This document shows, piece after piece, positions 1 through 24,210 of a stretch of DNA of 64,000 bases. A program made the translations under genes and the position numbers. Below the pieces are notes generated by a model that saw nothing but the letters and a program-made list of their open reading frames with translations, had not been told where the DNA came from and did not search any database. Where the stretch lies: contig CAZZFV010000004.1 of NCBI GenBank assembly GCA_964653855.1, positions 5,899 through 69,898 on the forward strand, written 5' to 3'. Within the stretch, counting starts at the first letter, position 1. The number at the start of each line of letters is the position of its first letter. This DNA comes from an uncultured Lachnospiraceae bacterium. Lineage in GTDB: Bacteria > Bacillota > Clostridia > Lachnospirales > Lachnospiraceae.

Positions 1-1367
1 TCAAACAATGCTTCCTTAATCGTAAGCTTTTGTAATACTTCCGCGTTTTCGGGAATTGTAACACTGCAAAAATCTCTTCCGAGATCCGAAACCGTATATT
101 CGCTTTTTAAAGGATAAAGAAGATACGACGCAACAAGCAAATCGACAAAGTTATCGCGGAATTCATCAAATTTTTCGCTTATTTCCTTTATTCCGTATCC
201 GATTATCTTTTTGTTTGCGGCACAAACCTTTTTTAAATTTTCTTTTAATGCGGTCAAAGCGTTTTTATCGGGATCGTAAAGATAAAAGCCCAAATTCCCG
301 CATGTAAACATTATCGCACCGATCTCATTTGAAAATCCGTCATCCGCTTTATATGCAGAATACGAAAATCCGATATTTTGATCACCCGATTTTAAAATTT
401 TGTCTGCGGCCCCCTCTATATCTTCCGGTGTTTTTAATTTTAAAAACTCCTGCGCCTTAAATTCCGGTACTTTTTTCGTTTCGTTTTCGCAGTTTATGTT
501 TGACTTTTCAAAAAGAGAAAACATCGACTTAAATTCGAGTTCCCTAACAATATCGTATGCCGCACCCGTAAAAATATCTCCGATCTTTGCCTTTGTAAGA
601 TCGAAATCAATATCGCAATCCGTTTTTATCGTTGCAAGCCACTTACAAAAATATGCGTCATCTTTTCCCTTTAAAAGCTTATCGTGCATTGCGCCCTTAA
701 TCTCGTCAAGATGCTCATATATCCCGTCAACCGAACCGTATTCCGTTATAAGTTTTTTTGCGCCTTCTTTTCCTATTCCCTGTACGCCCTTATAGTTATC
801 CGACGCATCTCCCATAATCGCCTTATAATCTATAACCATTTTGGGCTCCGGAAGCTCATACTTTTCCGCAAAATTATCCGCATTAAAATCCAAAATCTCC
901 GTTTTCCCGGATTTCGTTACGGGTACTTTAACAAGAATATTTTTCTTTACAAGTTGCAATAAGTCCTTGTCACCCGAAACAATTACGGCTTCAACGCCGT
1001 TTTTCACCGACATTTCAGCCATTGTTCCTATCAGATCGTCGGCTTCGTAGCCCCCTTTTTCAATCACAAATATACCCATAGCGTGAAGCAGCTTTTTAAG
1101 TACCGGAAATTGTGTATAAAGTGCTTCTTCCATGGGTTTTCTTTGTGCTTTATAATCTTTATATTCTTTGTGTCTGAATGTCGGCTCATGAACATCAAAG
1201 GCGATTGCCGCATACTCGGGCTTTTCCGTATTTATGAGCTTTAAAAAAATATTTAAAAATCCCTTTATCCCGTTTGTATGCATGCCCTTTGACGTGGTAA
1301 GATCGGGTAATCCGAAGTATGCCCTGTTTACAATGCTGTTGCCGTCTATCAAAATAATTTTTTTCAT
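1..1367 (-). CDS. polA: DNA polymerase I, N-terminal part (5'-3' exonuclease domain and beyond); runs off the left edge of the window
   Basis: Not in the ORF track because it has no stop in the window. The reverse complement of 1367 downward reads ATG AAA AAA ATT ATT TTG ATA GAC GGC AAC = MKKIILIDGNSIVNRAYFGLPDLTTSKGMHTNGIKG, the classic Pol I/FEN N-terminus. The codons checked at both ends are stop-free, and no large competing ORF occupies the region. Confidence 0.9.
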   Translation of the reverse strand, partial: MKKIILIDGNSIVNRAYFGLPDLTTSKGMHTNGIKGFLNIFLKLINTEKPEYAAIAFDVHEPTFRHKEYKDYKAQRKPMEEALYTQFPVLKKLLHAMGIFVIEKGGYEADDLIGTMAEMSVKNGVEAVIVSGDKDLLQLVKKNILVKVPVTKSGKTEILDFNADNFAEKYELPEPKMVIDYKAIMGDASDNYKGVQGIGKEGAKKLITEYGSVDGIYEHLDEIKGAMHDKLLKGKDDAYFCKWLATIKTDCDIDFDLTKAKIGDIFTGAAYDIVRELEFKSMFSLFEKSNINCENETKKVPEFKAQEFLKLKTPEDIEGAADKILKSGDQNIGFSYSAYKADDGFSNEIGAIMFTCGNLGFYLYDPDKNALTALKENLKKVCAANKKIIGYGIKEISEKFDEFRDNFVDLLVASYLLYPLKSEYTVSDLGRDFCSVTIPENAEVLQKLTIKEALF

Positions 1368-1377
1368 ATCGGTTCCT

Positions 1378-1764
1378 TTACAATATCCAATCATAATGTA
1401 TGTTGAGCAAAAATGCCGCAATTATAACCACCGCAAAAAAAGAAATCATGAATAAGAAAAATGCTCCCCTTCTTTTCAACACCAAATCCGTTCTTTTCTT
1501 TTCGGTATTTTTTAGGATTTCATCGATATTCGAATAATTCAAAAAATCATATTGGTCATCCATAAAGTGAAATGCCGACGAAAACATAAAATAGGCATTT
1601 AACTCCTTTTTACATTCGGGACATGTGTTTATGTGATCGGCAAACATGATTTCGTCTTTTAAGCTTAATTTGCCGTTGATATAATCCGGATTAAGCCTTC
1701 CGATTTCTTCACACGTAAAATCTTTGATTTTTTTTGTTTTTTCTTTTGTACGTTTTGTTTTCAT
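1378..1764 (-). CDS. zf-HC2 (anti-sigma-factor-like) membrane protein: Lys-rich N-terminus, one C-terminal TM helix, about 8 residues outside
   Basis: H-x3-C-x2-C motif (HINTCPECKKEL), preceded by CEEIGRLNPDYINGKLS as in ZAS-type anti-sigma N-domains. C-terminal TM is AFFLFMISFFAVVIIAAFLL. The track start at 1800 is TTG; the ATG at 1764 (MKTKRT...) sits 7 nt after a TATAAT. The stop is 10 nt from the polA ATG. Confidence 0.7.
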   Translation of the reverse strand: MKTKRTKEKTKKIKDFTCEEIGRLNPDYINGKLSLKDEIMFADHINTCPECKKELNAYFMFSSAFHFMDDQYDFLNYSNIDEILKNTEKKRTDLVLKRRGAFFLFMISFFAVVIIAAFLLNIHYDWIL

Positions 1765-1771
1765 GCCTTTT

Positions 1772-1800
1772 ATTATAATTTTTACGCATTGTAAAAGCAA
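1772..1800 (-). promoter_or_regulatory. Sigma-A-type promoter (TTGCTT-17-TATAAT) upstream of the zf-HC2 gene and polA
   Basis: The minus strand reads TTGCTT TTACAATGCGTAAAAAT TATAAT AAAAGGC ATG. The -35 hexamer lies inside the 43-bp repeat. Confidence 0.5.
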
Positions 1801-1836
1801 GAAAAAGTTACCTTTTCTGTCGTCCGAAGCATTTAA
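1794..1836. repeat. 43-bp perfect repeat, copy A (identical to 6556..6598)
   Basis: aaagcaagaaaaagttaccttttctgtcgtccgaagcatttaa was compared base by base with 6556..6598. It contains the 6-7-6 inverted repeat AGAAAA-AGTTACC-TTTTCT. Confidence 0.95.
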
Positions 1837-1860
1837 GCAAAAGTAGTAAAAATATTTCTT

Positions 1861-3765
1861 TTATCCAAAAACAATACATAAAGTATTCCACAAAAAATGG
1901 TTGACGACACATACAGAGATCGACCCTGATTTTTTATACAAAAAACATAAATAAATTCCGAAAACAAACGTGATAATTTTTGTAACCGATCCGTCATGCA
2001 GCAAAGCAAAAACTGCCGCACTTGTTATTATTGACACAACGTTCCACATTTTGTTTTCATTCCACATTTTATTTATATAATCAAACAGCAATCTCCTGAA
2101 CAGAAATTCTTCTCCGAGAGCCGTCCAAAATCCGTGAGATATTACCGTAAACAACATTGTAACCAAAAACGTTACGGAAAAATATTCCGATATGTTGCTT
2201 TCTTCGACGTAGGCCGGAATATTCAATGCCTTTTCTATAAAATACACAACAAAGTACGCAATACAAACGCATACAATCGAATATATAAAAATTTTTTTCG
2301 TCTCTTTATAGGGAACCCTTTTTATCGTTTCGTCCGAGTTGTTTTTTTTATTTGCATATTTGTTAAATAAGAATATAGCCAAAACACTCGAAATAAAGTA
2401 AATAAATTTGTTTAAAATATTCGAAGTATTACCGTTTATTTCAATTTCAAAATTTGAGAATAATCCTTCACAAGCGTCAGTAACAACTCCTGCAAAAAAA
2501 TATATGCACACAACACCGAGAATCAAAAAAACTCCCTTAAAAAAATCTATAAATTGTATTTTTTTTTTGCAAGTATTTTCCGTTTTTTCTTCATCATAAA
2601 ATTTCTCATCAAAAACAGCAAAATACGAAATAATTCCGCATATAACGGATACAATCACACATATCAAAAAGCTTCCGAATATCGCAGCAACACTTATTTC
2701 AAACGAAAAAGACATCAATTCGAACATATATCCCATTATATATTCAATTACAGAATTCATGAATCCGCGAATTAAGAACACCGAAATCATTCCGAACACA
2801 CACCCGATAAATCCTTGAACACCGGAAATCAATATCGAAAATTCAAGCAAAAATTTTTGAGGACATCCGCAAACATAAATCATTTTGTAAAAATCTCTGT
2901 TACTTGTCATGATTTCAACCGAAACATTTATAAGACCGATTGAAATTATGGCAATCAAAATAATACATATGCCGAATGCAGATGTAGAAAAAAGGCCTCC
3001 GAATTCATTATTGTATCCATATTCCTTATTTAAAAAGGAAACATAATAATTTTCTTCATTAATAATTTCCTGTGCCGTAGGAAAAAATTTTGCATTTGGC
3101 AATTCATAATCAACCACATCAACGTAATAATTCGAATAATCGATATTTTCATACGGAAAATAAATATCGCCAAAAGCTATCGACGTTTCGATTGAACTCG
3201 GAATAATTCCTACTACCTTTCCGGTGTACTCATATTCTTCGAATCCATGTATTGTAACACAAATATATTTACCGACCGCATCTATAGCACTTAAATTCGT
3301 TTTTTTTAAAAAGTTTTCGGATATCCATACGCCCGGGCTTGATATATCATATTCCGTAAAAAAATCTTTTTCGCTATCAAAAATAAAACATTCTTCTTTT
3401 AAATAGCTCAAAACTCTGATTTTATTGTCATAAACCGCTTCATTATAACAAACCGAAAAATCATCATACTCTGATAAAACACGTATATTACAATTTCCGA
3501 TTTTATCACCTATCTCTTTGACCTTTTTGTATGTTAAATTTGGAATAAAAGATTCTGTTCCGGTTGAATACCATTTTAAACCGTTTCCCGTTGAAATAAT
3601 TTTCGTACCGAGTTCATTTTCGTTATCCAAAATATCAGTACTTTTTCCGAAAGATAAAATTATAACGTAAACCATCGACACCAATGCGAAATTAATCCAG
3701 CAAATCAAATATTTTGTTTTGTGATTAATCATCCATTTATATATAAGTCGTAATACGTTAATCAT
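1861..3765 (-). CDS. Fusion protein: MacB/FtsX-type ABC permease (N-terminal ~390 aa) fused to a CPBP/Abi (CAAX-type) intramembrane metalloprotease (C-terminal ~220 aa)
   Basis: The N-terminal part has TM1, a ~230-aa extracytoplasmic domain and an FtsX-like 3-TM block (IISIGLINVSVEIMTSNRDFYKMIYVCGC...EFSILISGVQGFIGCVFG). The C-terminal part has all three CPBP motifs: EEFLFRR (EExxxR), FALLH (FxxxH) and HFLWN (HxxxN). Confidence 0.75.
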   Translation of the reverse strand: MINVLRLIYKWMINHKTKYLICWINFALVSMVYVIILSFGKSTDILDNENELGTKIISTGNGLKWYSTGTESFIPNLTYKKVKEIGDKIGNCNIRVLSEYDDFSVCYNEAVYDNKIRVLSYLKEECFIFDSEKDFFTEYDISSPGVWISENFLKKTNLSAIDAVGKYICVTIHGFEEYEYTGKVVGIIPSSIETSIAFGDIYFPYENIDYSNYYVDVVDYELPNAKFFPTAQEIINEENYYVSFLNKEYGYNNEFGGLFSTSAFGICIILIAIISIGLINVSVEIMTSNRDFYKMIYVCGCPQKFLLEFSILISGVQGFIGCVFGMISVFLIRGFMNSVIEYIMGYMFELMSFSFEISVAAIFGSFLICVIVSVICGIISYFAVFDEKFYDEEKTENTCKKKIQFIDFFKGVFLILGVVCIYFFAGVVTDACEGLFSNFEIEINGNTSNILNKFIYFISSVLAIFLFNKYANKKNNSDETIKRVPYKETKKIFIYSIVCVCIAYFVVYFIEKALNIPAYVEESNISEYFSVTFLVTMLFTVISHGFWTALGEEFLFRRLLFDYINKMWNENKMWNVVSIITSAAVFALLHDGSVTKIITFVFGIYLCFLYKKSGSISVCVVNHFLWNTLCIVFG

Positions 3766-3794
3766 TTTCTCTTTTTTATCCCTTTTAACCCGAT

Positions 3795-4457
3795 TTAAAT
3801 TATTTTTCCGTCCGCAAGTTTAATCGTTCTGGGTGCCAGCCTAGCCATATCCATATCATGAGTAACAAGAATTAAAGTTTTGTTTTCGGATAATTTTAAA
3901 ATATTGTCCATAACTTCTTTTCCAGTTTTTTCGTCAAGATTTCCTGTGGGTTCATCTGCCAAAATAATTTGAGGATTGTTTACAAACGCTCTGGCAATAC
4001 AAACTCTTTGTCTTTCTCCTCCGGAAAGCTCACTCGGTCGATGTTTAATTCTGTTTTCAAGTCCGACAAGTTTTAACATATACTCGGCTCTTTCCGTGTA
4101 CTCTTTTCTTTTTTTTCTGTTAATCATCATAGGTAAAGCAACATTTTCAAGAGCATTTAAAGAATTTTCAAGATAAAAAGATTGAAAAATAAACCCGATT
4201 TGTTTATTACGAAATTCAGAAAGTTCTTTTGATTTTTTTTCGGACATATTTACATCATTTATCAAAACACAGCCCGAAGTGGGCTTACTTACAGTTCCGA
4301 GCACATTAAGCAACGTTGTTTTTCCTGAGCCTGACTTACCGATAATTGATACAAACTCTCCGTCATCAATTTTTAAATTTATATTGTCAAGAGCTTTTAC
4401 AAAATTTTCCGAGCTCAAATTTCCGTAAATTTTACATACATTCTCACATATAATCAT
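3795..4457 (-). CDS. ABC transporter ATP-binding protein (MacB/LolD/FtsE-like)
   Basis: Walker A GKSGSGKTT, signature LSGGERQR, Walker B ILADEPTGNLD. Its start overlaps the upstream permease stop by 4 nt. Confidence 0.9.
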   Translation of the reverse strand: MIICENVCKIYGNLSSENFVKALDNINLKIDDGEFVSIIGKSGSGKTTLLNVLGTVSKPTSGCVLINDVNMSEKKSKELSEFRNKQIGFIFQSFYLENSLNALENVALPMMINRKKRKEYTERAEYMLKLVGLENRIKHRPSELSGGERQRVCIARAFVNNPQIILADEPTGNLDEKTGKEVMDNILKLSENKTLILVTHDMDMARLAPRTIKLADGKII

Positions 4458-5779
4458 AAGTTTCTCCGAGATAAATTTTTCTTCACATTAACAAAAACCG
4501 CCAATATGCCTGTAAAAATCAAAATACAACCCATACCGATTGCCGAAGCATAAACAAAACAGTTAAAAGGCAACAAAATATCTTTTAACGATTTAAATTC
4601 CGGCGTTCCGTACAACATCAAATATCCCATAACAAAACATATAAAAAAAGAAAAAAAGCTGCCGCTGATCCAACCGATTATTCCGTATTCGACACCTTCA
4701 CACATCATAATTCCCGCCACAGAATTTTTTTTCGACCCAAGCTTTTCCAATATGTCCCATGTTTCAATTTGTTCTTCATAATTTCTGTATAATGTCGAAA
4801 AAAGCATGAAAAGCGTCACAAAAACAGTCAATATTCCCACACACTTTAACATGCGCTGTAAAAAAAGTATCAAAATCTGTTCGGAAATAAGTCGTTCTCC
4901 GTCTGCTGACGCTATAATACTGAATCCGCACCTTATATCATCAAGCAAAGGCTCAAGAGAAGAATTATCGTTTGCATAAACTCTTATAAAACTTCCGTTG
5001 GCATTTTTTAAGTCGGGTATTAATTTTTTTACAATATCCGAAGATACAAGCATATCATTGCTTAAAGCAGTCATCATTCCTTGCTTTTTAAACATATCTT
5101 CATCAACATTCCAAAAACGATCCGATAATTCTTCGTTATAAATTCCGACTATCAAAGCCTCGGCTTCGTTATCGGCATAAGTAAACTTTATTTTTTCACC
5201 CACCGCCTGCTCAGCGGTTACATCGTAATACTCAAGCATACAGTTGCTTACAATGGCGACATTTTCTTCCCCCTTATACGGCAATCTTCCCGCAACCATA
5301 ATTTCTTTGTTTTCGGAGATAAGTTTATCTGTAAGTGATCCGGAAAAAAAATCAAAATTTGTATCAAATCCGCGCATCTTCGGAATCATTTTTTCTTTTT
5401 TTCCAAACATTTCGAATGAATAATTAAAAAAAAGAGTATCATATTCAATAACAATATTTTTAACTCTTTTATCATTTTGCAAATATGATATCAGCACCGT
5501 TGGTTCTTTTGCAAATTCATTTTGTGCTTCATCAATACTTGAATAATCATATGACGAGTCAATATTTATATATATTTCCGTAATATCAACTCTTTGTTCT
5601 TCATTGCGCGATGTTACATAAACGATGCTGTTTTCGGATGTGGCTTTGAATTTTCTATATGCAAAATCAAAATAAAATGAAATTGTGATTACAACAAAAG
5701 AAAGTGCAATTCCAATCACGACACTGATTGTTCTGCCTTTCCTTTCTTTTATTTTTTTTAAGGCAAACCATGCTTCCAT
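4454..5779 (-). CDS. FtsX-family ABC permease (MacB-type: TM1, large extracytoplasmic domain, 3 C-terminal TMs)
   Basis: N-terminal TM is TISVVIGIALSFVVITISFYF. The C-terminal FtsX-like block is VGILTVFVTLFMLFSTLYRNYEEQIETWDILEKLGSKKNSVAGIMMCEGVEYGIIGWISG. Confidence 0.8.
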   Translation of the reverse strand: MEAWFALKKIKERKGRTISVVIGIALSFVVITISFYFDFAYRKFKATSENSIVYVTSRNEEQRVDITEIYINIDSSYDYSSIDEAQNEFAKEPTVLISYLQNDKRVKNIVIEYDTLFFNYSFEMFGKKEKMIPKMRGFDTNFDFFSGSLTDKLISENKEIMVAGRLPYKGEENVAIVSNCMLEYYDVTAEQAVGEKIKFTYADNEAEALIVGIYNEELSDRFWNVDEDMFKKQGMMTALSNDMLVSSDIVKKLIPDLKNANGSFIRVYANDNSSLEPLLDDIRCGFSIIASADGERLISEQILILFLQRMLKCVGILTVFVTLFMLFSTLYRNYEEQIETWDILEKLGSKKNSVAGIMMCEGVEYGIIGWISGSFFSFFICFVMGYLMLYGTPEFKSLKDILLPFNCFVYASAIGMGCILIFTGILAVFVNVKKNLSRRNL

Positions 5780-5798
5780 TTATCAATACCGTCAAAAA

Positions 5799-6494
5799 TT
5801 AATTTTTATAAGGATTGGTATCACTTGTATCAACAAAAACTCCGAAACACTCAGAAATTATTTCATATATTTGTTCTTTTGGAGAAAAACTTGTTACTCC
5901 AACACTCAAATTCTTTTTTGCCTCCGCTTCGGTACAATGAATTCCGGAAACTTGGCGTACCTTTTCAACGTCACATTGATAACCGGTTATCGTTTCCTTT
6001 TCGTATGTTTGATATAACTTATACCATATCCCCGGCACCGGTGAATATGTATAAGAAGTTTTAACAGTTGTTTCATCAGAGTTTTCCCATTCATGAGAAA
6101 ATGCCGACTTCAAATCACCGATTCCCACATTACTTTTTAAAGATAAATCAACCGTTGTTTTTCTTCCTTCCGTATGACTTGCTGAATGTTCAACGGCATG
6201 TGTAACACTTCCCTTCGGAAAATATGACCATGCGGTCATTGCACTGTAAAATTGATTACTGAAGTTGTCAATATCTTCGTACACATCACTATACGATTCA
6301 ACATATGCATCATACCAAATTAAAGTCTTTTCCCAATAAGAATCATGATAAAAAGTTTCCGCCATTTTTTTATTATCAACATGGAAATCGTAAAAATCAT
6401 AGCAAAGAAATGTCAAAGTCAAAAAAGAAGTCAAAAAAGAAACACATACAACAAGAAATAATTTTTTATTTTTCATTTTCCCCGTCCCCCCCAT
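5799..6494 (-). CDS. Signal-anchored/secreted protein of unknown family; first gene of the ABC/CPBP operon
   Basis: N-terminal KNKKLFLVVCVSFLTSFLTLTFLCYDF is followed by a ~195-aa Tyr/Trp/Ser/Thr/Glu-rich domain with no motif I recognise. An alternative ATG lies at 6476. Confidence 0.6.
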   Translation of the reverse strand: MGGTGKMKNKKLFLVVCVSFLTSFLTLTFLCYDFYDFHVDNKKMAETFYHDSYWEKTLIWYDAYVESYSDVYEDIDNFSNQFYSAMTAWSYFPKGSVTHAVEHSASHTEGRKTTVDLSLKSNVGIGDLKSAFSHEWENSDETTVKTSYTYSPVPGIWYKLYQTYEKETITGYQCDVEKVRQVSGIHCTEAEAKKNLSVGVTSFSPKEQIYEIISECFGVFVDTSDTNPYKN

Positions 6495-6522
6495 AAATTT
6501 TCTTTAAATAAAACACGACTTC

Positions 6523-6551
6523 ATTATACGATTACATATATATGATGTCAA
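6523..6551 (-). promoter_or_regulatory. Consensus sigma-A promoter (TTGACA-17-TATAAT) for the anchored-protein/FtsX/ABC/FtsX-CPBP operon
   Basis: The minus strand reads TTGACA TCATATATATGTAATCG TATAAT. The 43-bp repeat ends 4 nt upstream of the -35. Confidence 0.75.
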
Positions 6552-6555
6552 TCGC

Positions 6556-6598
6556 AAAGCAAGAAAAAGTTACCTTTTCTGTCGTCCGAAGCATTTAA
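6556..6598. repeat. 43-bp perfect repeat, copy B (identical to 1794..1836)
   Basis: Same 43-mer in the same orientation. Weaker, gapped similarity continues about 20 nt past each end. Confidence 0.95.
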
Positions 6599-6615
6599 AA
6601 AAGTAAAAAAACATA

Positions 6616-6644
6616 TTGAAATTAAATTTCTTATGTGGTAAAAT
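6616..6644 (+). promoter_or_regulatory. Sigma-A promoter with extended -10 (TTGAAA-17-TGgTAAAAT) for tRNA-Leu
   Basis: TTGAAA TTAAATTTCTTATGTGG TAAAAT; the tRNA starts about 10 nt downstream. Confidence 0.75.
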
Positions 6645-6653
6645 CTGACAGTC

Positions 6654-6736
6654 GCTGGTGTGGTGGAATGGCAGACACAACAGACTCAAAATCTGTCGGG
6701 GGCAACTTCGTGCGGGTTCAAGTCCCGCCACCAGCA
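6654..6736 (+). tRNA. tRNA-Leu (anticodon CAA), class II with long variable arm, no encoded CCA
   Basis: Acceptor stem GCTGGTG/CACCAGC, D-arm GTGGAATGGCAGACAC, anticodon loop CT-CAA-AA, T-arm GGGTTCAAGTCCC, discriminator A followed by T8. Confidence 0.9.
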
Positions 6737-6765
6737 TTTTTTTTATAAAAAAAGAGGAGGATGCC

Positions 6766-7050
6766 ATGGAAATTGTATTGCGTAATCTTACCGAAGACTA
6801 TGTTATGCTTGTCTACAACCAAATTGCGGACACACTCGACTGTTGCAAATGCGATCAATGCCGACTTGACATTCTTTCCTATACTCTGAACCGCGTAAAG
6901 CCGAGATACGTTGTTTCTTCGGAAGGCGCACTCATGACCAAGCTTTGCGAATTTGATTATCAATTTGAAACTCTTGTTATATCGGAGCTTACAAAAGCCG
7001 CAGAGGTTGTAAAGAAAAATCCGAGACATAAAAACCCGCTTAATAATTAA
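6766..7050 (+). CDS. ComFB-family protein (late competence development protein ComFB domain)
   Basis: MEIVLRNLTEDYV...DCCKCDQCRLDILSYTLNRVKPRYVV matches the ComFB Cys-cluster pattern. SD AGAGGAGG lies 5 nt before the ATG. The upstream part of the track ORF (6658..) overlaps the tRNA and is spurious. Confidence 0.7.
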   Translation: MEIVLRNLTEDYVMLVYNQIADTLDCCKCDQCRLDILSYTLNRVKPRYVVSSEGALMTKLCEFDYQFETLVISELTKAAEVVKKNPRHKNPLNN

Positions 7051-7100
7051 ACACACATAAAAATCCTTGTATTACATGTTACATACTGAAAATTGATCAT

Positions 7101-7130
7101 AAAAAAATCCCGATTTCTTCGGGATTTTTT
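7101..7130. terminator. Bidirectional intrinsic terminator between the ComFB-like and NUDIX genes
   Basis: AAAAAAA TCCCGA tttct TCGGGA TTTTTT. Confidence 0.8.
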
Positions 7131-7152
7131 CTTACTTAAATTTCTTAATTTG

Positions 7153-7608
7153 TCATGTGTTCTCTCTTACCTTGTCCCACATGCCCTTCTTTTTGAAAGC
7201 AATATAATCGTTGTATGCTTTCTCCAAAATTTGCTTTTCGTTTGTAAATTTCAGAAGATGATACGCTTCGTGATACTTATAATATCCCGAATCCGTAAAA
7301 AATTCTTCTCTTTGCGGTTTGCTATAATAGCTGTCGGATGACATCAAATACCAATGAACATCCTTTGATACGATATCAGTTTGCGTGGAAAAAGTATACG
7401 AACTCTTTCCCACATAAGAAACAATTATTCCGTCAGCGCCCGTTTCCTCCTTTACTTCCCTGACTGCCGTCTGTTCATGTTCCTCGCCCGGTTCCACTGT
7501 ACCTTTCGGAAGGACCCATCCTTCGTACTTGTTTTTGTAATTTTTGTACAGCAAAAGTATCTTTCCTCTAAATATAACAACACCGCCGCAGCTCGTTGCT
7601 TCAATCAT
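7153..7608 (-). CDS. NUDIX hydrolase
   Basis: Nudix box GTVEPGEEHEQTAVREVKEETGA. The ATG at 7608 has a GGAGG SD 6 nt upstream; the track start at 7623 is TTG. Confidence 0.85.
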   Translation of the reverse strand: MIEATSCGGVVIFRGKILLLYKNYKNKYEGWVLPKGTVEPGEEHEQTAVREVKEETGADGIIVSYVGKSSYTFSTQTDIVSKDVHWYLMSSDSYYSKPQREEFFTDSGYYKYHEAYHLLKFTNEKQILEKAYNDYIAFKKKGMWDKVRENT

Positions 7609-7765
7609 CGCCGGCCTCCACAAGTGTTATTAAAAACTTGTGTAAAGTATACAACATTTGAAATAGGCTTGCAACATAAACATAAAAATCGTTTATACAA
7701 AACCGGATCCAAATTTCAAGAGCTTATACTTTTAAGTCATATAAACGCCGCAAATCATCTGTACC

Positions 7766-10177
7766 TCATTCAACGCCCCGTCTTATATGCCCTCTCGTAA
7801 ATTTTCCTTTGGGCTCCGTATGATTTAAGTAAGCTTTTATTATTTCTTTTGTTTCCGCGTAGCTTTCTGTCGTAAAGGAAAGCATATGGCTTTTTGCGTA
7901 ACTTAATTCCTGTTCTTCCTTAAGCCCGATTATCGAATAAATTTCGGAATTATATATAATGTTTACGCAGGTCGTGCAGCATGTTTTAACGGGGAACACC
8001 GCTCCCGTCTTATCGGTAATACTTATTTCCTTTACCGTTCCCTTTAAATTTTTGGAGCAGTTAAGAAAATTATCCCGCACACACCCTGCAGTCACCATAA
8101 GAGGCACACGCCCGTATATCGGCATATTTAACTCCGTAAAATCAAGTTCCTTTAATTCCGGTAAATTAAGTTCAAGAGATGCGGTAATAGTCTTTGCTCC
8201 CGTGATTTTCTTTAAAAATGCACCCGCCTCGTTATTCATAACATAAAGGAACTCGGAACAGATTATATTCTTACATTCCTTATGCTTTTTTAAAAATGCG
8301 ATTTCGTCAAGCGAATGCACCATAACTCCGTCCGGAATCGCAAAATCCGCTTCCTTATCAAGTCTGTCCGCATCCCTGTATCTTAAAATTCTCGGGAGAC
8401 ACAAAACAGCCTTTATATTTTTTTCTTTTATTTGTTTTATATAATCAATTTGAGCGGAAATACTTATGTCTTGCATATCAAGTATAATCAAATCCGGTGT
8501 AAAAGTGTCCAAAACGGCATCAAGTTCGGCTTTATCGGAAACCCTGCAAACAATTTCCGGGATTGATTTTATTCCGCATTCATCGTTTGATTTTGCTTCA
8601 TTTTCGTATTCAAAGCACTTTTCCGATTTTCTTTTATATGAATCGAGTATTGTGTTTTTTAGTCCGAGAAATGCCGCTCTTCTGAGTTCTTTTAATTTTC
8701 CTACGGGTACAAAAATATTGTCTCCCATATCCACGGTCAGGTAAGAAAAATCAAATTCGCTTTCACCCGTTTTATTTAAAACTTTTTTTATGTCATCCGC
8801 AGACATCGGCACATTTTTTGCTTTTTCCGCAATATCACCCGTAACGGTGAACGAAAAATTATCTGAAGAAACGTTTAAGCGTATTTTTTCGTTTTCATAT
8901 AAAACAATATGTCCGCTTACACTTCTTTTTGCATGCTTAACAAGATAACTTTCGTTTATTTTATCATAAAGCGTTTCATTCTTTGTTCTGTATACCATGT
9001 CCCCCGCTTTACATTTAAAATTTGCGGGAATACATATTTCATAAACCGAGTCACGGCTTTCGTTATACGATTTTAGTCCTTCCGCACCCACGGTAAATTC
9101 AAAAGTATCGTTGTTTCTTATTTCAAGAATGTCACCCTTGTTGATTTTTTCGGTTATGTTTATTATCGCACTTCTTCCGTAAACGTTTTTTAAATTTCCC
9201 ACCAAAATTCCCGAGTGATTCGGGCGCTTATCGCTCATCATATTCTTTCCGTGGTAACAAAAATAATAACCTTTCGAAAAGCCGCCGCGATTAAAAAGTT
9301 CAGAAACCTCTTTTATTTTTTCGGGAAGTTCATTGGGATTTTCTTTTATATATTTTTCAAATCCGTCACGTCCTTTGGTTTCATAAAGACGCGCAATGTA
9401 AGAATACGCGGCCGTAACTCCCGCCGAATATTCGGGGCGCTTCATTCTGCCTTCGATTTTAAAGGAATTAATTCCCGCATCAATCAAATCGGGCAAAAAA
9501 TCAAGCGTGCACATGTCTTTAAGACTAAGCAGGTATCCGTCCCGTACTTTTTTAGATTCTTCAGACAATGTATATTTTTGACGGCATGGCTGAGCACATC
9601 TTCCCCTGTTTCCGCTTCTTCCGCCTATCATGCTCGAAAACAAACATTGTCCCGAATACGAATAGCATAACGCCCCATGCACAAAGCATTCCATTTCGAG
9701 GCCGGTTTCCGATCTGAAACGTTTAATTTCAGTGAGTGACAATTCCCTTGCGGGCACAACACGTGTTACGCACGCATATTTTTTAAGAAAATCCGCACCC
9801 GCTCCCGTACATATTGAGTTTTGGGTGCTAAGGTGAATGGGTAACCCCGGAAAATTCTTTGAAACAAAAGAAAGAACACCCAAATCCTGCACAATAACCG
9901 CATCGATTCCGTGTTCATAATACACTTTCAAAAAATCAAAAAGCTCCTTTTCAAGTTCTTTTTGCTTAAAAAGCGTATTGACGGTCATATATATTTTTTT
10001 TTCGTTTAAATGCACAAAATCGATGGCAGAAAGAAGTTCACTTTCATTTGGGTTATTGGCATACGCTCTTGCCCCAAATTTATTGCCACCGACATAAACT
10101 GCATCCGCACCCGCCGTTATTGCACCGTAAATTGATGCGTACGACCCCGCAGGCGCGAGAATTTCTGTTTTATTCAT
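7766..10177 (-). CDS. Peptidase U32 family protein (long, ~800-aa form)
   Basis: U32 signature ECFVHGALCYSYSGQCLFS and an N-terminus EILAPAGS...AGADAVYVGG. Confidence 0.85.
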   Translation of the reverse strand: MNKTEILAPAGSYASIYGAITAGADAVYVGGNKFGARAYANNPNESELLSAIDFVHLNEKKIYMTVNTLFKQKELEKELFDFLKVYYEHGIDAVIVQDLGVLSFVSKNFPGLPIHLSTQNSICTGAGADFLKKYACVTRVVPARELSLTEIKRFRSETGLEMECFVHGALCYSYSGQCLFSSMIGGRSGNRGRCAQPCRQKYTLSEESKKVRDGYLLSLKDMCTLDFLPDLIDAGINSFKIEGRMKRPEYSAGVTAAYSYIARLYETKGRDGFEKYIKENPNELPEKIKEVSELFNRGGFSKGYYFCYHGKNMMSDKRPNHSGILVGNLKNVYGRSAIINITEKINKGDILEIRNNDTFEFTVGAEGLKSYNESRDSVYEICIPANFKCKAGDMVYRTKNETLYDKINESYLVKHAKRSVSGHIVLYENEKIRLNVSSDNFSFTVTGDIAEKAKNVPMSADDIKKVLNKTGESEFDFSYLTVDMGDNIFVPVGKLKELRRAAFLGLKNTILDSYKRKSEKCFEYENEAKSNDECGIKSIPEIVCRVSDKAELDAVLDTFTPDLIILDMQDISISAQIDYIKQIKEKNIKAVLCLPRILRYRDADRLDKEADFAIPDGVMVHSLDEIAFLKKHKECKNIICSEFLYVMNNEAGAFLKKITGAKTITASLELNLPELKELDFTELNMPIYGRVPLMVTAGCVRDNFLNCSKNLKGTVKEISITDKTGAVFPVKTCCTTCVNIIYNSEIYSIIGLKEEQELSYAKSHMLSFTTESYAETKEIIKAYLNHTEPKGKFTRGHIRRGVE

Positions 10178-13586: not shown

Positions 13587-13779
13587 CCTTTTTATGAAAA
13601 TGGTGTACAAAAAAATCTCTTTATATCTTACCAAATTTCCGAATAAATTTAAAGCATAAAATGCTTTTCATAAATATTTAATGATGTCCCCAAAAAGAAA
13701 TTTGCAAGGCATTTATTAATCACTCGACAGTTTGAAATTTTATTGTATCTGTGATATAAATCTTTTTGCGAGGTGCCTT

Positions 13780-14865
13780 ATGAAAGAAATAAAGACAAAA
13801 AAAAATTACAGAATACCCGACAACTTATTGTTTTTTGATATCGAAACAACGGGCTTAAGCGCAAGAACATCTTATGTTTATCTTATAGGTTTTATGACAA
13901 ACGAAAACGGAACATGTTTTCTTAACTTACTCTTGTGTGAGGATTTTAACGAAGAAAAAGAGCTTTTGATTAAGTTTTCGGATATTCTTAAAAAAAGTCG
14001 GAAAACGCCCGTAACATATAACGGAAATACCTTTGATATTCCCTATTTAAACGAAAAATTTAAGCGTCACCAAATCAATTTTTTTATCGATACTATGAAC
14101 ACAATCGATTGCTACAAAACACTTATCGGTTACAAAAAGCTGTTTGATATAAGCGACTTAAAGCTTGTTACCGTCGAAAAAAAAGCGGGATATACGCGTG
14201 AAAACTTCATCTCGGGCGAAGATTTGATAAATGTGTACGCTGAGCTTACGGGGCTCATTCGCTTATATGAAATAACAAAAAGAGAGGATGTAAAAGAAAA
14301 AATAAACGCACTCGAATTTACGCTTCTCTCTCACAATTCGGATGACATAGAGGGGCTTTTTTGTATTTACGAAAAAACAAATATTTTAAGCGCAAAAGAG
14401 TTTTTGATTAAACCGGAAATAAGCGTTTCGGAAACCGAAATCACGCTTACTTATCCTGTTCCGCTTTTCCCGTGCGAAACCGAATTTAATTTTTCGAATT
14501 TTTATTTATTTAACGGGAAAACAGCCTCCGAAATCGTTATTCCCATAATAAATACTGAGTTCAAGTACTTCTTTAAGGATTACAAAAATTACACATACAT
14601 CGCATCAAAAGACATGTGTATGCACAACTCCGTCGTAACCGGATTGCCGAAAGAAGAAAAAATAAAATGCACGCGTGAAAACGCATACATAAAAAAACAG
14701 GACATGTTTTTGTTTGTCCCGAAAAATTTTATTGATTACGCAAGCGAAAATCGCATTCCGCTTTTTAAAGCAAATTACGATTCCAAAGAATTTTATATGC
14801 AAAAAAACAATTTTGAAAATCATTCCGACGAATATATAAAATCGATACTGAGCGAAATAAAGTAG
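13780..14865 (+). CDS. RNase H-like/DEDD 3'-5' exonuclease-fold protein (YprB-like)
   Basis: FFDIETTGL (Exo I motif) and YNGNTFDIPYL. The ATG at 13780 follows a GAGG SD. Confidence 0.65.
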   Translation: MKEIKTKKNYRIPDNLLFFDIETTGLSARTSYVYLIGFMTNENGTCFLNLLLCEDFNEEKELLIKFSDILKKSRKTPVTYNGNTFDIPYLNEKFKRHQINFFIDTMNTIDCYKTLIGYKKLFDISDLKLVTVEKKAGYTRENFISGEDLINVYAELTGLIRLYEITKREDVKEKINALEFTLLSHNSDDIEGLFCIYEKTNILSAKEFLIKPEISVSETEITLTYPVPLFPCETEFNFSNFYLFNGKTASEIVIPIINTEFKYFFKDYKNYTYIASKDMCMHNSVVTGLPKEEKIKCTRENAYIKKQDMFLFVPKNFIDYASENRIPLFKANYDSKEFYMQKNNFENHSDEYIKSILSEIK

Positions 14866-21392: not shown

Positions 21393-22109
21393 TTACATGC
21401 TCTTCTTGATTATCTTGTTTATTTGCGAAAAATCATGAAGCGCTTTTTTGCCTATCTTAAATATCTTCTTCATGTTGATCGAATTTACGCCGCCCTGGCG
21501 GGGTCTGAACGTAATCGGAATAAACTTGACCTTATATCCCTTTTTGATAAAAAGAACCGAAATTATAACGTTTGAAAGGTTGTAATTTTCGGGAATAAGT
21601 CCGATTTCCTTCTTTAAGCTCTCCGCCTTCATAAGTCTGAAAGGCGTGTTTGCGTCGACAATCGTGACATGGAAGCAGATTTTACAAACGAGCTTAAGCG
21701 TTTTTGTAACAAAGATTCTCGAGAATCCGTCCTGTCTGCCTTTTCTGTGACCGATTACCATGTCAAAATTATTTCTTTCTTCCCAAAAGCTTTCGAATTC
21801 GGAAGGCAAAGTCTGTCCGTCGGAATCCGTTTGGAATATGAAATCGGCGCCTTCTTTAATCGCATAATTGTATCCGAAAAGAATCGTCGAACCGTGTCCG
21901 CCGTTAGGCTTTGTGAGCGCAATCATTTTGGGTCTCGATTCCGCAAGTTTTTTAAGAATCTCGTATGTGTCATCCTTTGAGCCGTCGTTTATGACGACAA
22001 GTCTTGAATCATCCCCGTGCTTATCGACAACAGGATACCAGTCGTTTACAACGTTTTCGATATTGTCCCTTTCATTGTATGCGGGAATAACAATATATAA
22101 CTTATCCAT
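21393..22109 (-). CDS. Glycosyltransferase family 2 (soluble form)
   Basis: YIVIPAYNERDNI...VVINDGSKDDT...QTDSDGQ. GGAGGA SD lies 5 nt before the ATG at 22109. It overlaps the upstream stop by 8 nt. Confidence 0.85.
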   Translation of the reverse strand: MDKLYIVIPAYNERDNIENVVNDWYPVVDKHGDDSRLVVINDGSKDDTYEILKKLAESRPKMIALTKPNGGHGSTILFGYNYAIKEGADFIFQTDSDGQTLPSEFESFWEERNNFDMVIGHRKGRQDGFSRIFVTKTLKLVCKICFHVTIVDANTPFRLMKAESLKKEIGLIPENYNLSNVIISVLFIKKGYKVKFIPITFRPRQGGVNSINMKKIFKIGKKALHDFSQINKIIKKSM

Positions 22110-24210
22110 TTGTTCCTCCGTTTTTGTAAATTTTTTCGCTTGTGTCAAAAATTCTTATTTCCCACTCGCCTTCGCCCGACGAATATACTTCTTTGTAGGT
22201 TGCGGCGATATTGTCTTCGTTAAGCTCATAATCGGTGCATTGTCTTACCGTTATGTTCACTATTATATAATCTATGTCGGATTTGTATACGTAATAATCA
22301 AGTTCCGTGGGCGTTGACGCTTCAAATATTTTTTTGACCGTTGCAGCGCGTTCCGCGGTGTCATACCCCGCCGACCATGCGCAATAAGGATACGCATAAT
22401 AGCTCATGATTCCGCCGAGCACGATATTCGTGAGCGGATAGGAATCCGTAAGCACAAGGTCGTCGCATGTGACATTTTCTTTAAGCCAAAGTGTCGTTTC
22501 GTCACTTAATGAAAACTCAAGATGACCGTCATCTTCTCTTGCCTGAATATAAAGCTCCGTAACACCCGTAAACGTAAGCACAAATATGAGTGCCCCCGCA
22601 ACAAGATAATTTATCACTTTTCTTTCTTTTATTATCCATGTAAGGAAATATGCCGTATACATCGACAAAAACATAAGGGAAATGATTATCCACTTATGGT
22701 TTACACCGATATCGGGTGTAAGAGACAGGAAAAACGACATTATAAAAGGCACGGCAGACACAAGGAACATATATCTTTCGGCGCCCTTTGTGCGAAGCAT
22801 TCCGAACACGGCAACCAAAAGCGTGATTCCCGTGAGTGCGACAATGTACGAAAGCACACCGAACACCGTTCTGTTTTCCGCCAAAAATCCGAAATAATAT
22901 GACGGTGAAACCGCCGCTCCGTTTATGAAAAACTTTGTTTGCGCGAACGACAAAACAACAGCTATTACCGCGGCAATAAGGTAATCGAGTCTGCATACCG
23001 AAAACGCAGCCATGAAGAAAAGCATCGCAAGTGCCGCAATTTCGCATGAACCGTGCCAAAAAGCAAGCATTCCGAGAAATAACCCGGAGCCTATCGCAAT
23101 CTTCGGATTTTTAATTGCAAACGAATCGTGTGAAAAGAAGCATACTTTGATGAAATCATACCATCTTGCTTTTCTTATCGTATATTCGTCACCGTCTTTC
23201 ACGAGCATGCCTTCGCTCTTTAACGCAACCATGTTATCTCCCATTTCACGCAAATACGGAAGAAAAATGATAATCGAGAGCAAAATTGCGGTCATACCGA
23301 ACGCCAAATGCCTTTGGTTACAAAAAACTCTTGTGCACCAAAAGCCCCAGCCTTCATGATACTCGGAATATGTGAAATATTTTCTGTTTTCGAGTAAAGC
23401 CTTTAACGGATTTCCCGATGTGTCGTTTGCAAGAAAATCAAATGCCGAAAACGAACTTCTGAATGTAAACAGAAGTCCGCCGAGGCACGCCGTAAGCCTT
23501 GAATAAAAAAGATGCACCGTAAGCGTAAACAAAAGCATGTAAACCGAAAAGAGGTTGAAAATGCTCGGAATATTGAACGCATGATCAATTCTGAGACCCA
23601 AAAATTCAAGGTTTCCGACCAAAAATTCATGCATAAAATGATAACGTATATCCGCCCCGCCATAATAAGTGTAACCCGTCGGAAAATTGTTGCTGTAAGA
23701 AAACGATCTTATCATTCCGAGGTGGGCACCGAAATCACCCCACACGGAAAGCCCAACATTCATCGTGTCATCGGTGACATTGAAACTTCTGTACATGATA
23801 ATCGTGCAAAAACAAAGTACAATTATCGAATAAAAGGCATATAAAGGATCGCCGTTCCAAAAAAATTCGCGAAGAAGATTAAAATCAAGCTTTCGTATTT
23901 TTCTGTGATAAATATTCATTCCGTAAAAGAACGCAAAGCACGCGAGCAGCATTCCGAGAACTATCACATTTCCGAAAATAAGGGGCTTGGGTTCGTTTTT
24001 ACAAATGTATGAAACTATATACACGAGCCACGTTACAATAAGCGTACCCGTCAGATACCATGCGGGCAAAAGCACATAATATGACGGTAACGAAATTGTG
24101 GTGCCGTCACTCTTTTTGATATATGCATTTTCGATCAAACGAGGAAAGAAAATCTTGCAAAACATATATCCCGTAACTATGCATATAAATATATAAAAAA
24201 TACCAAGCAT
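22102..24210 (-). CDS. Large polytopic membrane protein, candidate GT-C-type glycosyltransferase
   Basis: 702 aa with many hydrophobic segments. It sits between two GT2 genes with a 7-nt gap and an 8-nt overlap. I did not recognise a diagnostic family motif with certainty. Confidence 0.5.
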   Translation of the reverse strand: MLGIFYIFICIVTGYMFCKIFFPRLIENAYIKKSDGTTISLPSYYVLLPAWYLTGTLIVTWLVYIVSYICKNEPKPLIFGNVIVLGMLLACFAFFYGMNIYHRKIRKLDFNLLREFFWNGDPLYAFYSIIVLCFCTIIMYRSFNVTDDTMNVGLSVWGDFGAHLGMIRSFSYSNNFPTGYTYYGGADIRYHFMHEFLVGNLEFLGLRIDHAFNIPSIFNLFSVYMLLFTLTVHLFYSRLTACLGGLLFTFRSSFSAFDFLANDTSGNPLKALLENRKYFTYSEYHEGWGFWCTRVFCNQRHLAFGMTAILLSIIIFLPYLREMGDNMVALKSEGMLVKDGDEYTIRKARWYDFIKVCFFSHDSFAIKNPKIAIGSGLFLGMLAFWHGSCEIAALAMLFFMAAFSVCRLDYLIAAVIAVVLSFAQTKFFINGAAVSPSYYFGFLAENRTVFGVLSYIVALTGITLLVAVFGMLRTKGAERYMFLVSAVPFIMSFFLSLTPDIGVNHKWIIISLMFLSMYTAYFLTWIIKERKVINYLVAGALIFVLTFTGVTELYIQAREDDGHLEFSLSDETTLWLKENVTCDDLVLTDSYPLTNIVLGGIMSYYAYPYCAWSAGYDTAERAATVKKIFEASTPTELDYYVYKSDIDYIIVNITVRQCTDYELNEDNIAATYKEVYSSGEGEWEIRIFDTSEKIYKNGGTNG

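Follow-up and report, generated by a model that had tools for sequence, protein, structure and literature searches.

Five genes, all transcribed from the minus strand, are found between polA and the tRNA-Leu(CAA) gene in the 64,000-nt (64-kb) stretch of contig CAZZFV010000004.1 described here. The whole stretch is termed the window and all coordinates given are window positions. The genes, designated g1 to g5 in order of transcription, form a block of 5,221 bp (1378–6598). They encode a predicted membrane-anchored protein (g1), an FtsX-type permease (g2), an ATP-binding cassette (ABC) ATPase (g3), a fusion of a second FtsX-type permease with a CPBP protease (g4, FtsX::CPBP) and a zf-HC2 protein (g5). 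The subject of this analysis is the four-gene cassette g1–g4, its probable horizontal origin, and its possible role as a machine that extracts and cleaves membrane-embedded peptides.

The open reading frame of g1 spans 5799–6494. Translation probably begins at the second ATG (6476), downstream of a G-rich ribosome-binding stretch, and this gives a 225 aa protein (5799–6476). A G homopolymer at 6484–6493, situated between the ATG at 6494 and that at 6476, varies in length among strains; the G-run after the upstream ATG consists of six Gs in the window and in contig L018 and of five in L011, and the difference is either real variation of the ribosome-binding region or an assembly error. g2 (4454–5779) encodes 441 aa and is followed by g3 (3795–4457). 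In g4 (1861–3765, stop codon 1861–1863) residues 1–385 (2611–3765) form the second permease, and the C-terminal part (1861–2610) consists of a charged cytoplasmic linker and then a CPBP (Rce1-like) domain of the glutamic-type intramembrane protease kind. The mechanical open reading frame of g5 covers 1378–1800, with a likely start at the ATG at 1764 and a 128 aa product (1378–1764). The spacing calculated from these coordinates (19 nt between g1 and g2, a 4-nt overlap of g2 with g3, 29 nt between g3 and g4, and 96 nt between g4 and g5) reproduces all gaps and the overlap on which the initial annotation of this DNA based its description of five tightly packed genes.

A 43-bp direct repeat is found in two exact minus-strand copies. 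Copy 1 (6556–6598) lies directly upstream of the g1 promoter and copy 2 (1794–1836) begins 24 nt after the stop codon of g4. On the right-hand flank, the tRNA-Leu(CAA) gene (6654–6736, plus strand) is transcribed away from the block and lies 55 nt from copy 1, so the reported adjacency to a tRNA gene is correct; this tRNA is the sole match in an Rfam scan of bases 1–8000. On the left-hand flank is polA (3–1367, minus strand), which encodes 5′–3′ exonuclease domains and runs off the window. The full-length PolA found in same-species contigs has 899 aa.

The g3 translation displays Walker A, signature and Walker B motifs and matches the Pfam family ABC_tran with 120.7 bits. NCBIfam scores are 256.5 bits for LolD, 206 for FtsE, 204.1 for MacB and 204 for a lactococcin-972-type ABC protein. 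Since these scores are below the equivalog cut-offs, g3 falls in the LolD/MacB/FtsE clade yet is none of the named proteins. Direct Pfam scores of the two permeases for FtsX (PF02687) are narrowly below the cut-off of 25.5 bits (g2, 20.6; g4, 21.4). The calls are confirmed because FtsX in cassette homologues passes the cut-off (28.9 bits), because the g4 sequence matches the YtrF permease structure 9o9x in a phmmer search (E-value = 3e-4), and because a Foldseek search with the g4 model finds type VII ABC folds, i.e. MacB, LolC/E, YtrEF, HrtB and FtsX, at a probability of 1.00 and E-values of 1e-9 to 1e-4. The top fold matches are MacB (5gko), LolCDE (7mdx), 5xu1 and YtrEF (9o9x), with E-values of approximately 1e-9, and Spr0694/5, HrtBA, YbbAP, FtsEX and BceAB are also matched.

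Hydropathy shows a 1+3 arrangement of membrane segments in both permeases, at residues 17–35, 310–328, 366–384 and 401–419 of g2 and at residues 20–38, 263–281, 305–323 and 361–379 of g4. The predicted extracytoplasmic domains are about 270 aa and about 224 aa, respectively. At least five further hydrophobic segments follow the FtsX part of g4. The MacB_PCD domain (PF12704, cut-off 27 bits) gives an E-value of 0.038 and 14.7 bits for g4 and no match for g2, and confidence of the g4 model in this region is moderate. By topology, fold and homology, g2 and g4 classify as type VII ABC permeases of the FtsX type, and g3 as the ATPase of the matching clade.

The protease half of g4 scores 58.5 bits for PF02517 (residues 537–628), above the cut-off of 22.4 bits. 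All three CPBP motifs are intact: E552-E553-F-L-F-R557 (EExxxR), F586-A-L-L-H590 (FxxxH) and H623-F-L-W-N627 (HxxxN). In alignments, g4 and the related protein P0003 are identical at the residues of all three motifs, and the motifs are conserved in P0005 and P0006 as well; this conservation argues for catalysis. NCBIfam scores of g4 for named CPBP subfamilies are all far below the cut-offs. Thus, of the four domains proposed initially, PF02517 and PF13490 are found directly, PF02687 falls just short and is rescued by homologues and fold, and PF12704 gives a weak match. The predicted architecture of two FtsX permeases, one ATPase and a CPBP protease is assigned with high confidence.

g1 has one hydrophobic segment by hydropathy, at the N-terminal end (residues 6–24); its AlphaFold single-sequence model is unusable (pLDDT 43). 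A homologue is present in a second cassette (locus L003) with 33% identity and an E-value of 2e-29. We infer that g1 is an N-terminally anchored extracytoplasmic accessory or cargo protein of the cassette. Such proteins, one to three in number, 220–300 aa long and with a single N-terminal anchor, are encoded in each cassette for which the contig includes sequence 5′ of the ATPase gene. The g1-type and 280-aa-type proteins show no detectable relationship, the links across families are weak (E-values of 0.003 and 1e-4), and no match to a hydrolase, coiled-coil or LytM-type family is found among the accessory proteins. The 233-aa accessory protein at 4771–5472 of locus L025 has an N-terminal anchor, and in addition a C-terminal hydrophobic segment followed by a basic tail (…KALAVGALYAVAIFACHKLMDRKKNH). 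This tail resembles a C-terminal sorting signal and makes the protein a candidate CPBP substrate.

Searches for relatives differ greatly in yield. Word-indexed searches with g4, g1 and family-alignment queries returned essentially the query only; low-complexity AT-rich words swamped the candidates. For g4 and g1, a 5.8-billion-cluster index holds no near relatives. A full HMMER scan of 1.84 billion representative proteins gave three other full-length FtsX::CPBP clusters (28–34% identity) and a handful of FtsX-only relatives, and a genome scan with a two-sequence alignment gave one locus. Seven other cassette loci are distinguished (L003, L004-7, L008-9, L024, L025-28, L087-88 and L089). As judged from these homologues, g1–g4 is a member of a rare cassette family that combines two different FtsX permeases, an ATPase, one to three anchored proteins and a CPBP protease which is either fused to FtsX or encoded just downstream. 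FtsX-type ABC genes and CPBP are fused or adjacent in 7 of the 8 cassette loci, which upholds the functional link between them that had been proposed. The cassette ATPases are 51–71% identical to one another (g3 is 52–66% identical to the others), and orthologues of the g2-type and the g4-type permease are present in every cassette.

The arrangement varies among loci. L003, from a Lachnospiraceae metagenome-assembled genome (MAG), shows the order smpB, tmRNA, helix-turn-helix (HTH) regulator, g1 homologue, g2 homologue (36%), 277-aa anchored protein, ATPase (65%), FtsX::CPBP and hydF. The cassette there starts right after the tmRNA with the regulator of 370 aa (L003 4669–6309), whose only Pfam match is the C-terminal HTH domain and whose G+C at third codon positions (GC3) is 0.267; the window has no equivalent of it, and no flanking repeats are found around the L003 cassette. 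L004-7, flanked by a GH127 gene and by flagellar rod genes, consists of FtsX, a 280-aa protein, ATPase and FtsX::CPBP. L003 and L005 are both from GCA_016291655.1, a single MAG with a pair of paralogous FtsX::CPBP cassettes on separate contigs; the two fusions are approximately 26% identical. In L008-9 a 277-aa protein, ATPase and FtsX::CPBP are found, and the cassette abuts a tyrosine integrase (L008). In L025-28, L087-88 and L089 the ATPase gene is preceded by genes for two anchored proteins (about 225 and 285 aa) and followed by those for a g4-type and then a g2-type FtsX, after which comes a stand-alone CPBP protein of about 320 aa. A two-component system is situated 3′ of the L025 cassette, and a YknX-like adaptor, an ABC ATPase and a MacB-type permease lie directly 3′ of the cassettes in L087 (6106–9522) and L089 (9148–12488). 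A PADLOC search shows no anti-phage system; g3 displays generic ATPase similarity only, and g1, g2, g4 and g5 give no matches.

The block differs in base composition from its surroundings. Its G+C is 0.321 against 0.409 for the rest of the window, the lowest value among all 5.2-kb sliding windows of the 64 kb (mean 0.403, standard deviation 0.024). GC3 of g1–g4 is 0.25–0.31, below the minimum (0.339) of the 45 other window genes, and a synonymous-codon likelihood ratio sets g1–g4 apart from every core gene. The low GC3 of g1–g4 is not explained by amino acid content, since membrane-protein genes elsewhere in the window show normal values. Six hand counts of G+C per 60 nt (11, 11, 16, 26, 29 and 32) in the initial annotation are all exact, and the AT-richness they pointed to is borne out by windowed G+C, GC3 and codon statistics within the window. 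The lowest G+C of a non-block gene (0.332) is that of an RNase_H-superfamily/PolB-exonuclease-like gene at 13732–14865 (plus strand), with a normal GC3 of 0.384.

Variation between strains points in the same direction. Thirteen same-species contigs from ENA and Logan metagenome assemblies, 98.4–99.9% identical to the window, were pooled. They show 14 polymorphic sites in the 5,221 bp of the block (1378–6598) and 132 in 6,779 bp of flanks, i.e. 2.7 and 19.5 sites per kb (Fisher p = 2e-19), approximately seven-fold fewer in the block. The common ancestor of the block is therefore more recent than that of its surroundings, as expected for an insertion that spread recently. The low-polymorphism trough (1000–7050) reaches a few hundred bases past both copies of the 43-bp repeat. 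On the tRNA side it extends 250–450 bp beyond copy 1 in most strains, and g5 reaches 416 bp beyond copy 2; placing g5 in the island by means of the trough was rejected, as the trough runs a similar distance past the other copy. Two independent Logan assemblies, L020 and L021, both break exactly inside copy 1 (their position 1 = window 6569), as expected where a repeat of 43 bp is longer than the assembler k-mer. L020 is the most divergent strain (98.35% identity), with single-nucleotide differences directly beside the repeat.

Cassette G+C and GC3 are below those of the flanks in every host for which flanks are available, and insertion sites are unrelated between cassettes. Because of composition, codon usage, the polymorphism trough and the presence of homologous cassettes at unrelated sites, one beside a tmRNA (L003) and one beside a tyrosine integrase (L008), the block was probably acquired horizontally between polA and tRNA-Leu, and the initial proposal of horizontal acquisition is upheld at that strength.

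The 43-bp repeat has only two copies in the window, where shuffled sequences give an expectation of 0 matches. Both copies are kept at both positions in all same-species contigs, and similarity between them ends abruptly at both sides. Exact copies are thus present 5′ of g1 and of g5, as had been noted. The repeat holds a 19-nt imperfect palindrome AGAAAAGGTAACTTTTTCT, self-complementary at 16 of 19 positions and centred at 6571 in copy 1. It matches no known RNA element among the Rfam families. A perfect TTGACA-17-TATAAT (6523–6551, minus strand; 12/12 positions of the sigma-70-type consensus, a consensus match only) starts 4 nt after copy 1 and is the predicted promoter of g1–g4. The candidate promoter of g5 and polA, TTGCTT-17-TATAAT (1772–1800, minus strand), was read from the sequence. 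It scores 3/6 + 6/6, weaker than the g1 promoter, and is unlisted in the promoter scan, which required at least 4/6 matches in the first hexamer. Its −35 hexamer TTGCTT (1795–1800) is formed by the last bases of copy 2, and the ATG of g5 is 7 nt after its −10 hexamer, so the predicted g5 mRNA is nearly leaderless. Of the two promoters described initially, the one for g1 stands as a perfect consensus match and the one for g5 is reduced to this weak candidate. The repeat as an extracytoplasmic function (ECF)-type promoter was rejected, since copy 1 and copy 2 do not have the putative −10 at the same place.

g5 scores marginally above the zf-HC2 cut-off (PF13490, 23.8 bits against 22.2) and shows the motif C18...H44-INT-C48-PE-C51 (C...HxxxCxxC). 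A single C-terminal transmembrane segment (residues 102–120) leaves an outside tail of about 8 residues, and because only these residues are outside the membrane, g5 has no site-1-type ectodomain. The g5 stop codon is 10 nt before the polA ATG (1364–1380). No terminator is predicted between g4, g5 and polA, and the g4–g5 spacer has no terminator-like fold and folds no better than shuffled sequence. g5 and polA are probably co-transcribed, and polA transcripts may start at the promoter next to copy 2 or arise from cassette transcription that reads through. The pairing of zf-HC2 with polA is not conserved at distant polA loci (1 of approximately 25). No sigma-70-family domain is found in about 35 window open reading frames scanned; the neighbours of g5 are g4 and polA.

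The five-gene set described in the initial annotation recurs in part. The cassette of FtsX, ATPase, CPBP and anchored protein is found elsewhere, but a zf-HC2 gene within 5 kb is found at none of the seven other loci. The GC3 of g5 (0.372) is within the core range, whereas its codon-usage score (+0.026) is higher than that of any of the 114 core chunks and falls among the lowest cassette values. Placing g5 in the core by GC3 was rejected as underpowered (129 codons) and contradicted by the codon-usage test. From this distribution g5 is best described as a lineage-specific neighbour rather than a component of the conserved cassette; it is possibly co-regulated with the cassette and co-acquired.

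The preferred interpretation is that g1–g4 form a horizontally acquired type VII ABC 'extract-and-cleave' machine for defence against peptide toxins, a reading which in our estimate has about an even chance of being right. g2 and g4 would form a heterodimer of the LolC/LolE kind, driven by two g3 ATPase subunits, with the CPBP intramembrane protease attached at the cytoplasmic C-terminus of g4 and with g1 serving as a membrane-anchored extracytoplasmic accessory. By ATP-driven mechanotransmission, the FtsX pair would capture a peptide or protein embedded in the membrane, or extract it from the outer leaflet, and hand it to the attached protease for cleavage. The host would thereby most likely be immune or resistant to a membrane-active peptide toxin, for instance a bacteriocin. 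Mechanotransmission by type VII ABC systems has been reviewed (PMC5985334), and PMC8538875, citing Kjos 2010, presents CPBP/Abi proteins as bacteriocin immunity factors thought to degrade the bacteriocin. Peptide-toxin immunity or resistance is favoured as the specific function because of the YbbAP-TesA precedent discussed below, the immunity roles of CPBP/Abi proteins and the YknXYZ-like module beside two cassettes. This assignment is tentative and judged somewhat less likely than not. The functional hypothesis rests entirely on comparative genomics.

Several observations weigh against this interpretation. The compositional outlier status of the block is measured relative to the 64-kb window and not to the genome. 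No mobility gene (integrase or transposase) is found among the five block genes by Pfam/NCBIfam, and an empty site is not found, as all same-species contigs spanning the site (99.4–99.9% identical) carry the block. No recognisable bacteriocin or toxin gene lies beside any cassette. g1 matches no Pfam or NCBIfam family and its PDB sequence search is empty. The structural model of g4 is moderate (pLDDT 62, pTM 0.38), and the packing of CPBP against the FtsX part is unreliable in it. In L024, a short contig, FtsX-ATPase-FtsX is present without a CPBP gene. The search for comparable sites also included exact-protein look-ups of g5, ComFB and L32, which returned the same species only or contigs too short to reach the site, and two related MAG contigs, which end before reaching the polA/tRNA-Leu site. 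A metagenome scan with PolA gave distant relatives only (identity no higher than 56% in short stretches and 47% in the longer matches), and a plasmid search with g4 gave no match.

The same genes can be read as a maturation and release module. CPBP would then cut the anchor of the co-encoded single-pass proteins, and the FtsX pair would extract and release them as LolCDE does with lipoproteins, the cassette exporting its own cargo rather than defending against peptides from outside. The presence of at least one anchored protein in every cassette whose contig extends 5′ of the ATPase suits this account, as does the sorting-signal-like hydrophobic segment and basic tail at the end of the 233-aa protein of L025. 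NCBIfam matches to MrtJ, MrtS, MrtC and MroQ, which act in sorting-signal or pheromone processing, are also found, all far below cut-offs, and LolCDE is among the best fold matches. However, the accessory proteins differ between cassettes, their g1 and 280-aa types being not detectably related and their cross-family links weak; g1 itself has no C-terminal sorting signal, and no cleavage motif can be defined. A maturation role is the main rival but is considered rather unlikely. FtsEX-like control of a cell-wall enzyme, in which the FtsX pair would use ATP to switch on an extracytoplasmic, envelope-remodelling partner (g1 or the 280-aa protein) and CPBP would be a regulatory scaffold, draws on the FtsEX complexes with EnvC-type partners among the fold matches and on the extracytoplasmic, membrane-anchored nature of the accessory proteins. 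Some bacterial CPBP proteins (SpdC and Abx1) act via protein–protein contacts rather than proteolysis, which also counts for it. But hydrolase, coiled-coil and LytM-type matches are absent from the accessory proteins, the fusion proteins show strict conservation of all three catalytic CPBP motifs, and no other recognisable cell-wall or division gene is present in the block or among the recorded neighbours of the other cassettes. Such control is very improbable.

Two further alternatives concern g5 and the repeat. The initial annotation envisaged one five-gene sensing module in which ABC-driven CPBP would cleave the zf-HC2 protein g5 in the manner of PrsW and RsiW and free a regulator. g5 is indeed directly 3′ of g4 with no convincing terminator between them, shares the exact 43-bp upstream element with g1, passes the zf-HC2 threshold with HxxxCxxC present, has synonymous codon usage closer to the cassette than to the core, and lies inside the low-polymorphism tract. 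The trough, however, reaches 250–450 bp past the other repeat copy and hence does not assign g5 to the cassette. The proposed coupling is not supported in view of the lack of a zf-HC2 gene within 5 kb at the 7 other loci, the lack of a sigma factor among the roughly 35 scanned open reading frames and the outside tail of about 8 residues in place of an ectodomain. In addition, only 10 nt separate the end of g5 from polA, and g5 seems to lead a g5–polA unit. The five-gene sensing module is quite improbable.

The repeat may be a recombination scar rather than a shared regulatory element, i.e. a target or attachment sequence duplicated when the 4,762-bp g1–g4 unit inserted upstream of an older g5–polA unit. 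Its exactness over 43 bp and the abrupt loss of similarity at both ends would fit such an event, and the two copies exactly bracket g1–g4, which are just the genes that recur as a cassette at other loci. The block also adjoins a tRNA gene, the position of the repeat relative to the two −35 hexamers differs by 12 nt, and the GC3 of g5 is inside the core range. Against a scar, the block has no integrase, the repeat does not overlap the tRNA, the codon usage of g5 leans towards the cassette, and neither the same-species contigs nor the PolA metagenome scan provides an empty site for comparison. The repeat could instead be a site for a shared regulator: relative to the two predicted starts, the centre of the 16/19 palindrome would fall close to −55 and −44, an offset of one helical turn that would suit binding of an activator. 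The scar reading is judged somewhat short of an even chance.

The most far-reaching reading unites these elements. The FtsX::CPBP cassettes would be a new type VII class that feeds membrane-embedded substrates by mechanotransmission into an attached protease, and the cassette described here would be wired through the 43-bp element to a membrane-tethered zf-HC2 regulator heading the polA unit. This is a long shot. If true, it would provide the first mechanistic account of CPBP/Abi peptide immunity and would link envelope stress to expression of a DNA-repair polymerase.

Two other features of the window are of note. Where comFB and the NUDIX gene converge, an inverted repeat of 40 nt (7074–7158; 70% complementary, 5-nt loop) lies between them and probably terminates transcription from both sides. 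A 702-aa open reading frame (22102–24210) between two family-2 glycosyltransferase genes, labelled a GT-C membrane protein in the initial annotation, has no Pfam match at E ≤ 1e-5.

Whatever its function, the FtsX–CPBP cassette is, by its gene content and distribution, an uncharacterised, rare and mobile family that belongs to both the type VII ABC superfamily and the CPBP family. How CPBP/Abi proteins protect against membrane-active peptides is still unclear, and the cassette sharpens a testable hypothesis; the fused plus split versions are genomic evidence that permease and protease work as one unit, and the compact four-gene system could be expressed. New roles for type VII ABC mechanotransmitters also continue to come to light, that of YbbAP-TesA as late as 2025. 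The cassette appears to move as a small AT-rich unit among Lachnospiraceae-like gut or rumen bacteria and therefore may contribute to community competition. If its function is routine peptide resistance, the result is a useful annotation rather than a discovery.

With the known type VII ABC systems (MacB, LolCDE, FtsEX, HrtBA, YtrEF, Spr0694/0695 and BceAB) the cassette shares the four-helix FtsX permease with a large domain between TM1 and TM2 and a separate ATPase, and with LolCDE it also shares two different permease subunits and one ATPase gene. It differs in the CPBP protease fused to the C-terminus of one permease and in extracytoplasmic domains that barely match MacB_PCD. Its partners are single-pass proteins, and a MacA/YknX adaptor, LolA, EnvC or PcsB is not among them. 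YbbAP-TesA of E. coli is a type VII ABC system coupled to a hydrolase and proposed to extract hydrophobic molecules for hydrolysis (PMC12646458), the same logic of extraction followed by hydrolysis by a partner as proposed for the cassette. However, its hydrolase, an esterase/thioesterase, is soluble, periplasmic and separately encoded, whereas that of the cassette is a fused intramembrane glutamic-type protease; no sequence relationship extends beyond the FtsX fold, and the cassette host, unlike E. coli, is probably a monoderm Clostridia-like bacterium.

Other systems share a gene order or a pairing of components with the block. Pneumococcal Vex1-Vex2-Vex3 and B. subtilis YknWXYZ are peptide-resistance ABC modules without a CPBP component. 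Vex123 has the same gene order, FtsX-ATPase-FtsX, and both modules tie FtsX-type systems to peptide toxins; the YknX-like adaptor and MacB-type transporter that adjoin two related cassettes are likened to YknWXYZ by shared domains only. In PrsW-RsiW-SigW of B. subtilis a zf-HC2 anti-sigma factor undergoes regulated proteolysis, and the PrsW family is distinct from PF02517. The window likewise has adjoining genes for a membrane protease and a membrane protein of the zf-HC2 family, but the scanned open reading frames hold no sigma gene, g5 lacks an ectodomain and the pairing is absent from other cassettes. The CPBP/Abi immunity proteins SkkI, PlnI and PlnL (Kjos 2010, cited by PMC8538875), as well as MroQ and the myxosortases, belong to the same Rce1-like family with the three catalytic motifs and handle peptides at the membrane (immunity, pheromone maturation, sorting-signal removal). 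Unlike g4, they are stand-alone proteins of about 200–330 aa with no fused ABC partner.

Full-text literature searches show no described FtsX–CPBP system, in agreement with the initial statement that none had been characterised, but that statement is qualified by a curated family for ABC-permease/CPBP fusions. This family, NF041647 of NCBIfam (ABC transporter permease subunit/CPBP intramembrane protease), likewise combines a permease and a C-terminal CPBP domain in one polypeptide, and its CPBP half is the best NCBIfam match of the CPBP half of g4 and relatives. The g4 score is 47.9 bits against a cut-off of 435, with only model positions 413–632 aligned, and the same holds for P0003, P0005 and P0006. 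The only end-to-end match, P0152, carries an ABC-2-type permease domain (PF12698) and not FtsX. Because the N-terminal half of NF041647 fits this ABC-2-type protein and not g4, the FtsX::CPBP fusion is regarded as a separate event, which suggests that coupling of ABC permeases with CPBP proteases arose more than once.

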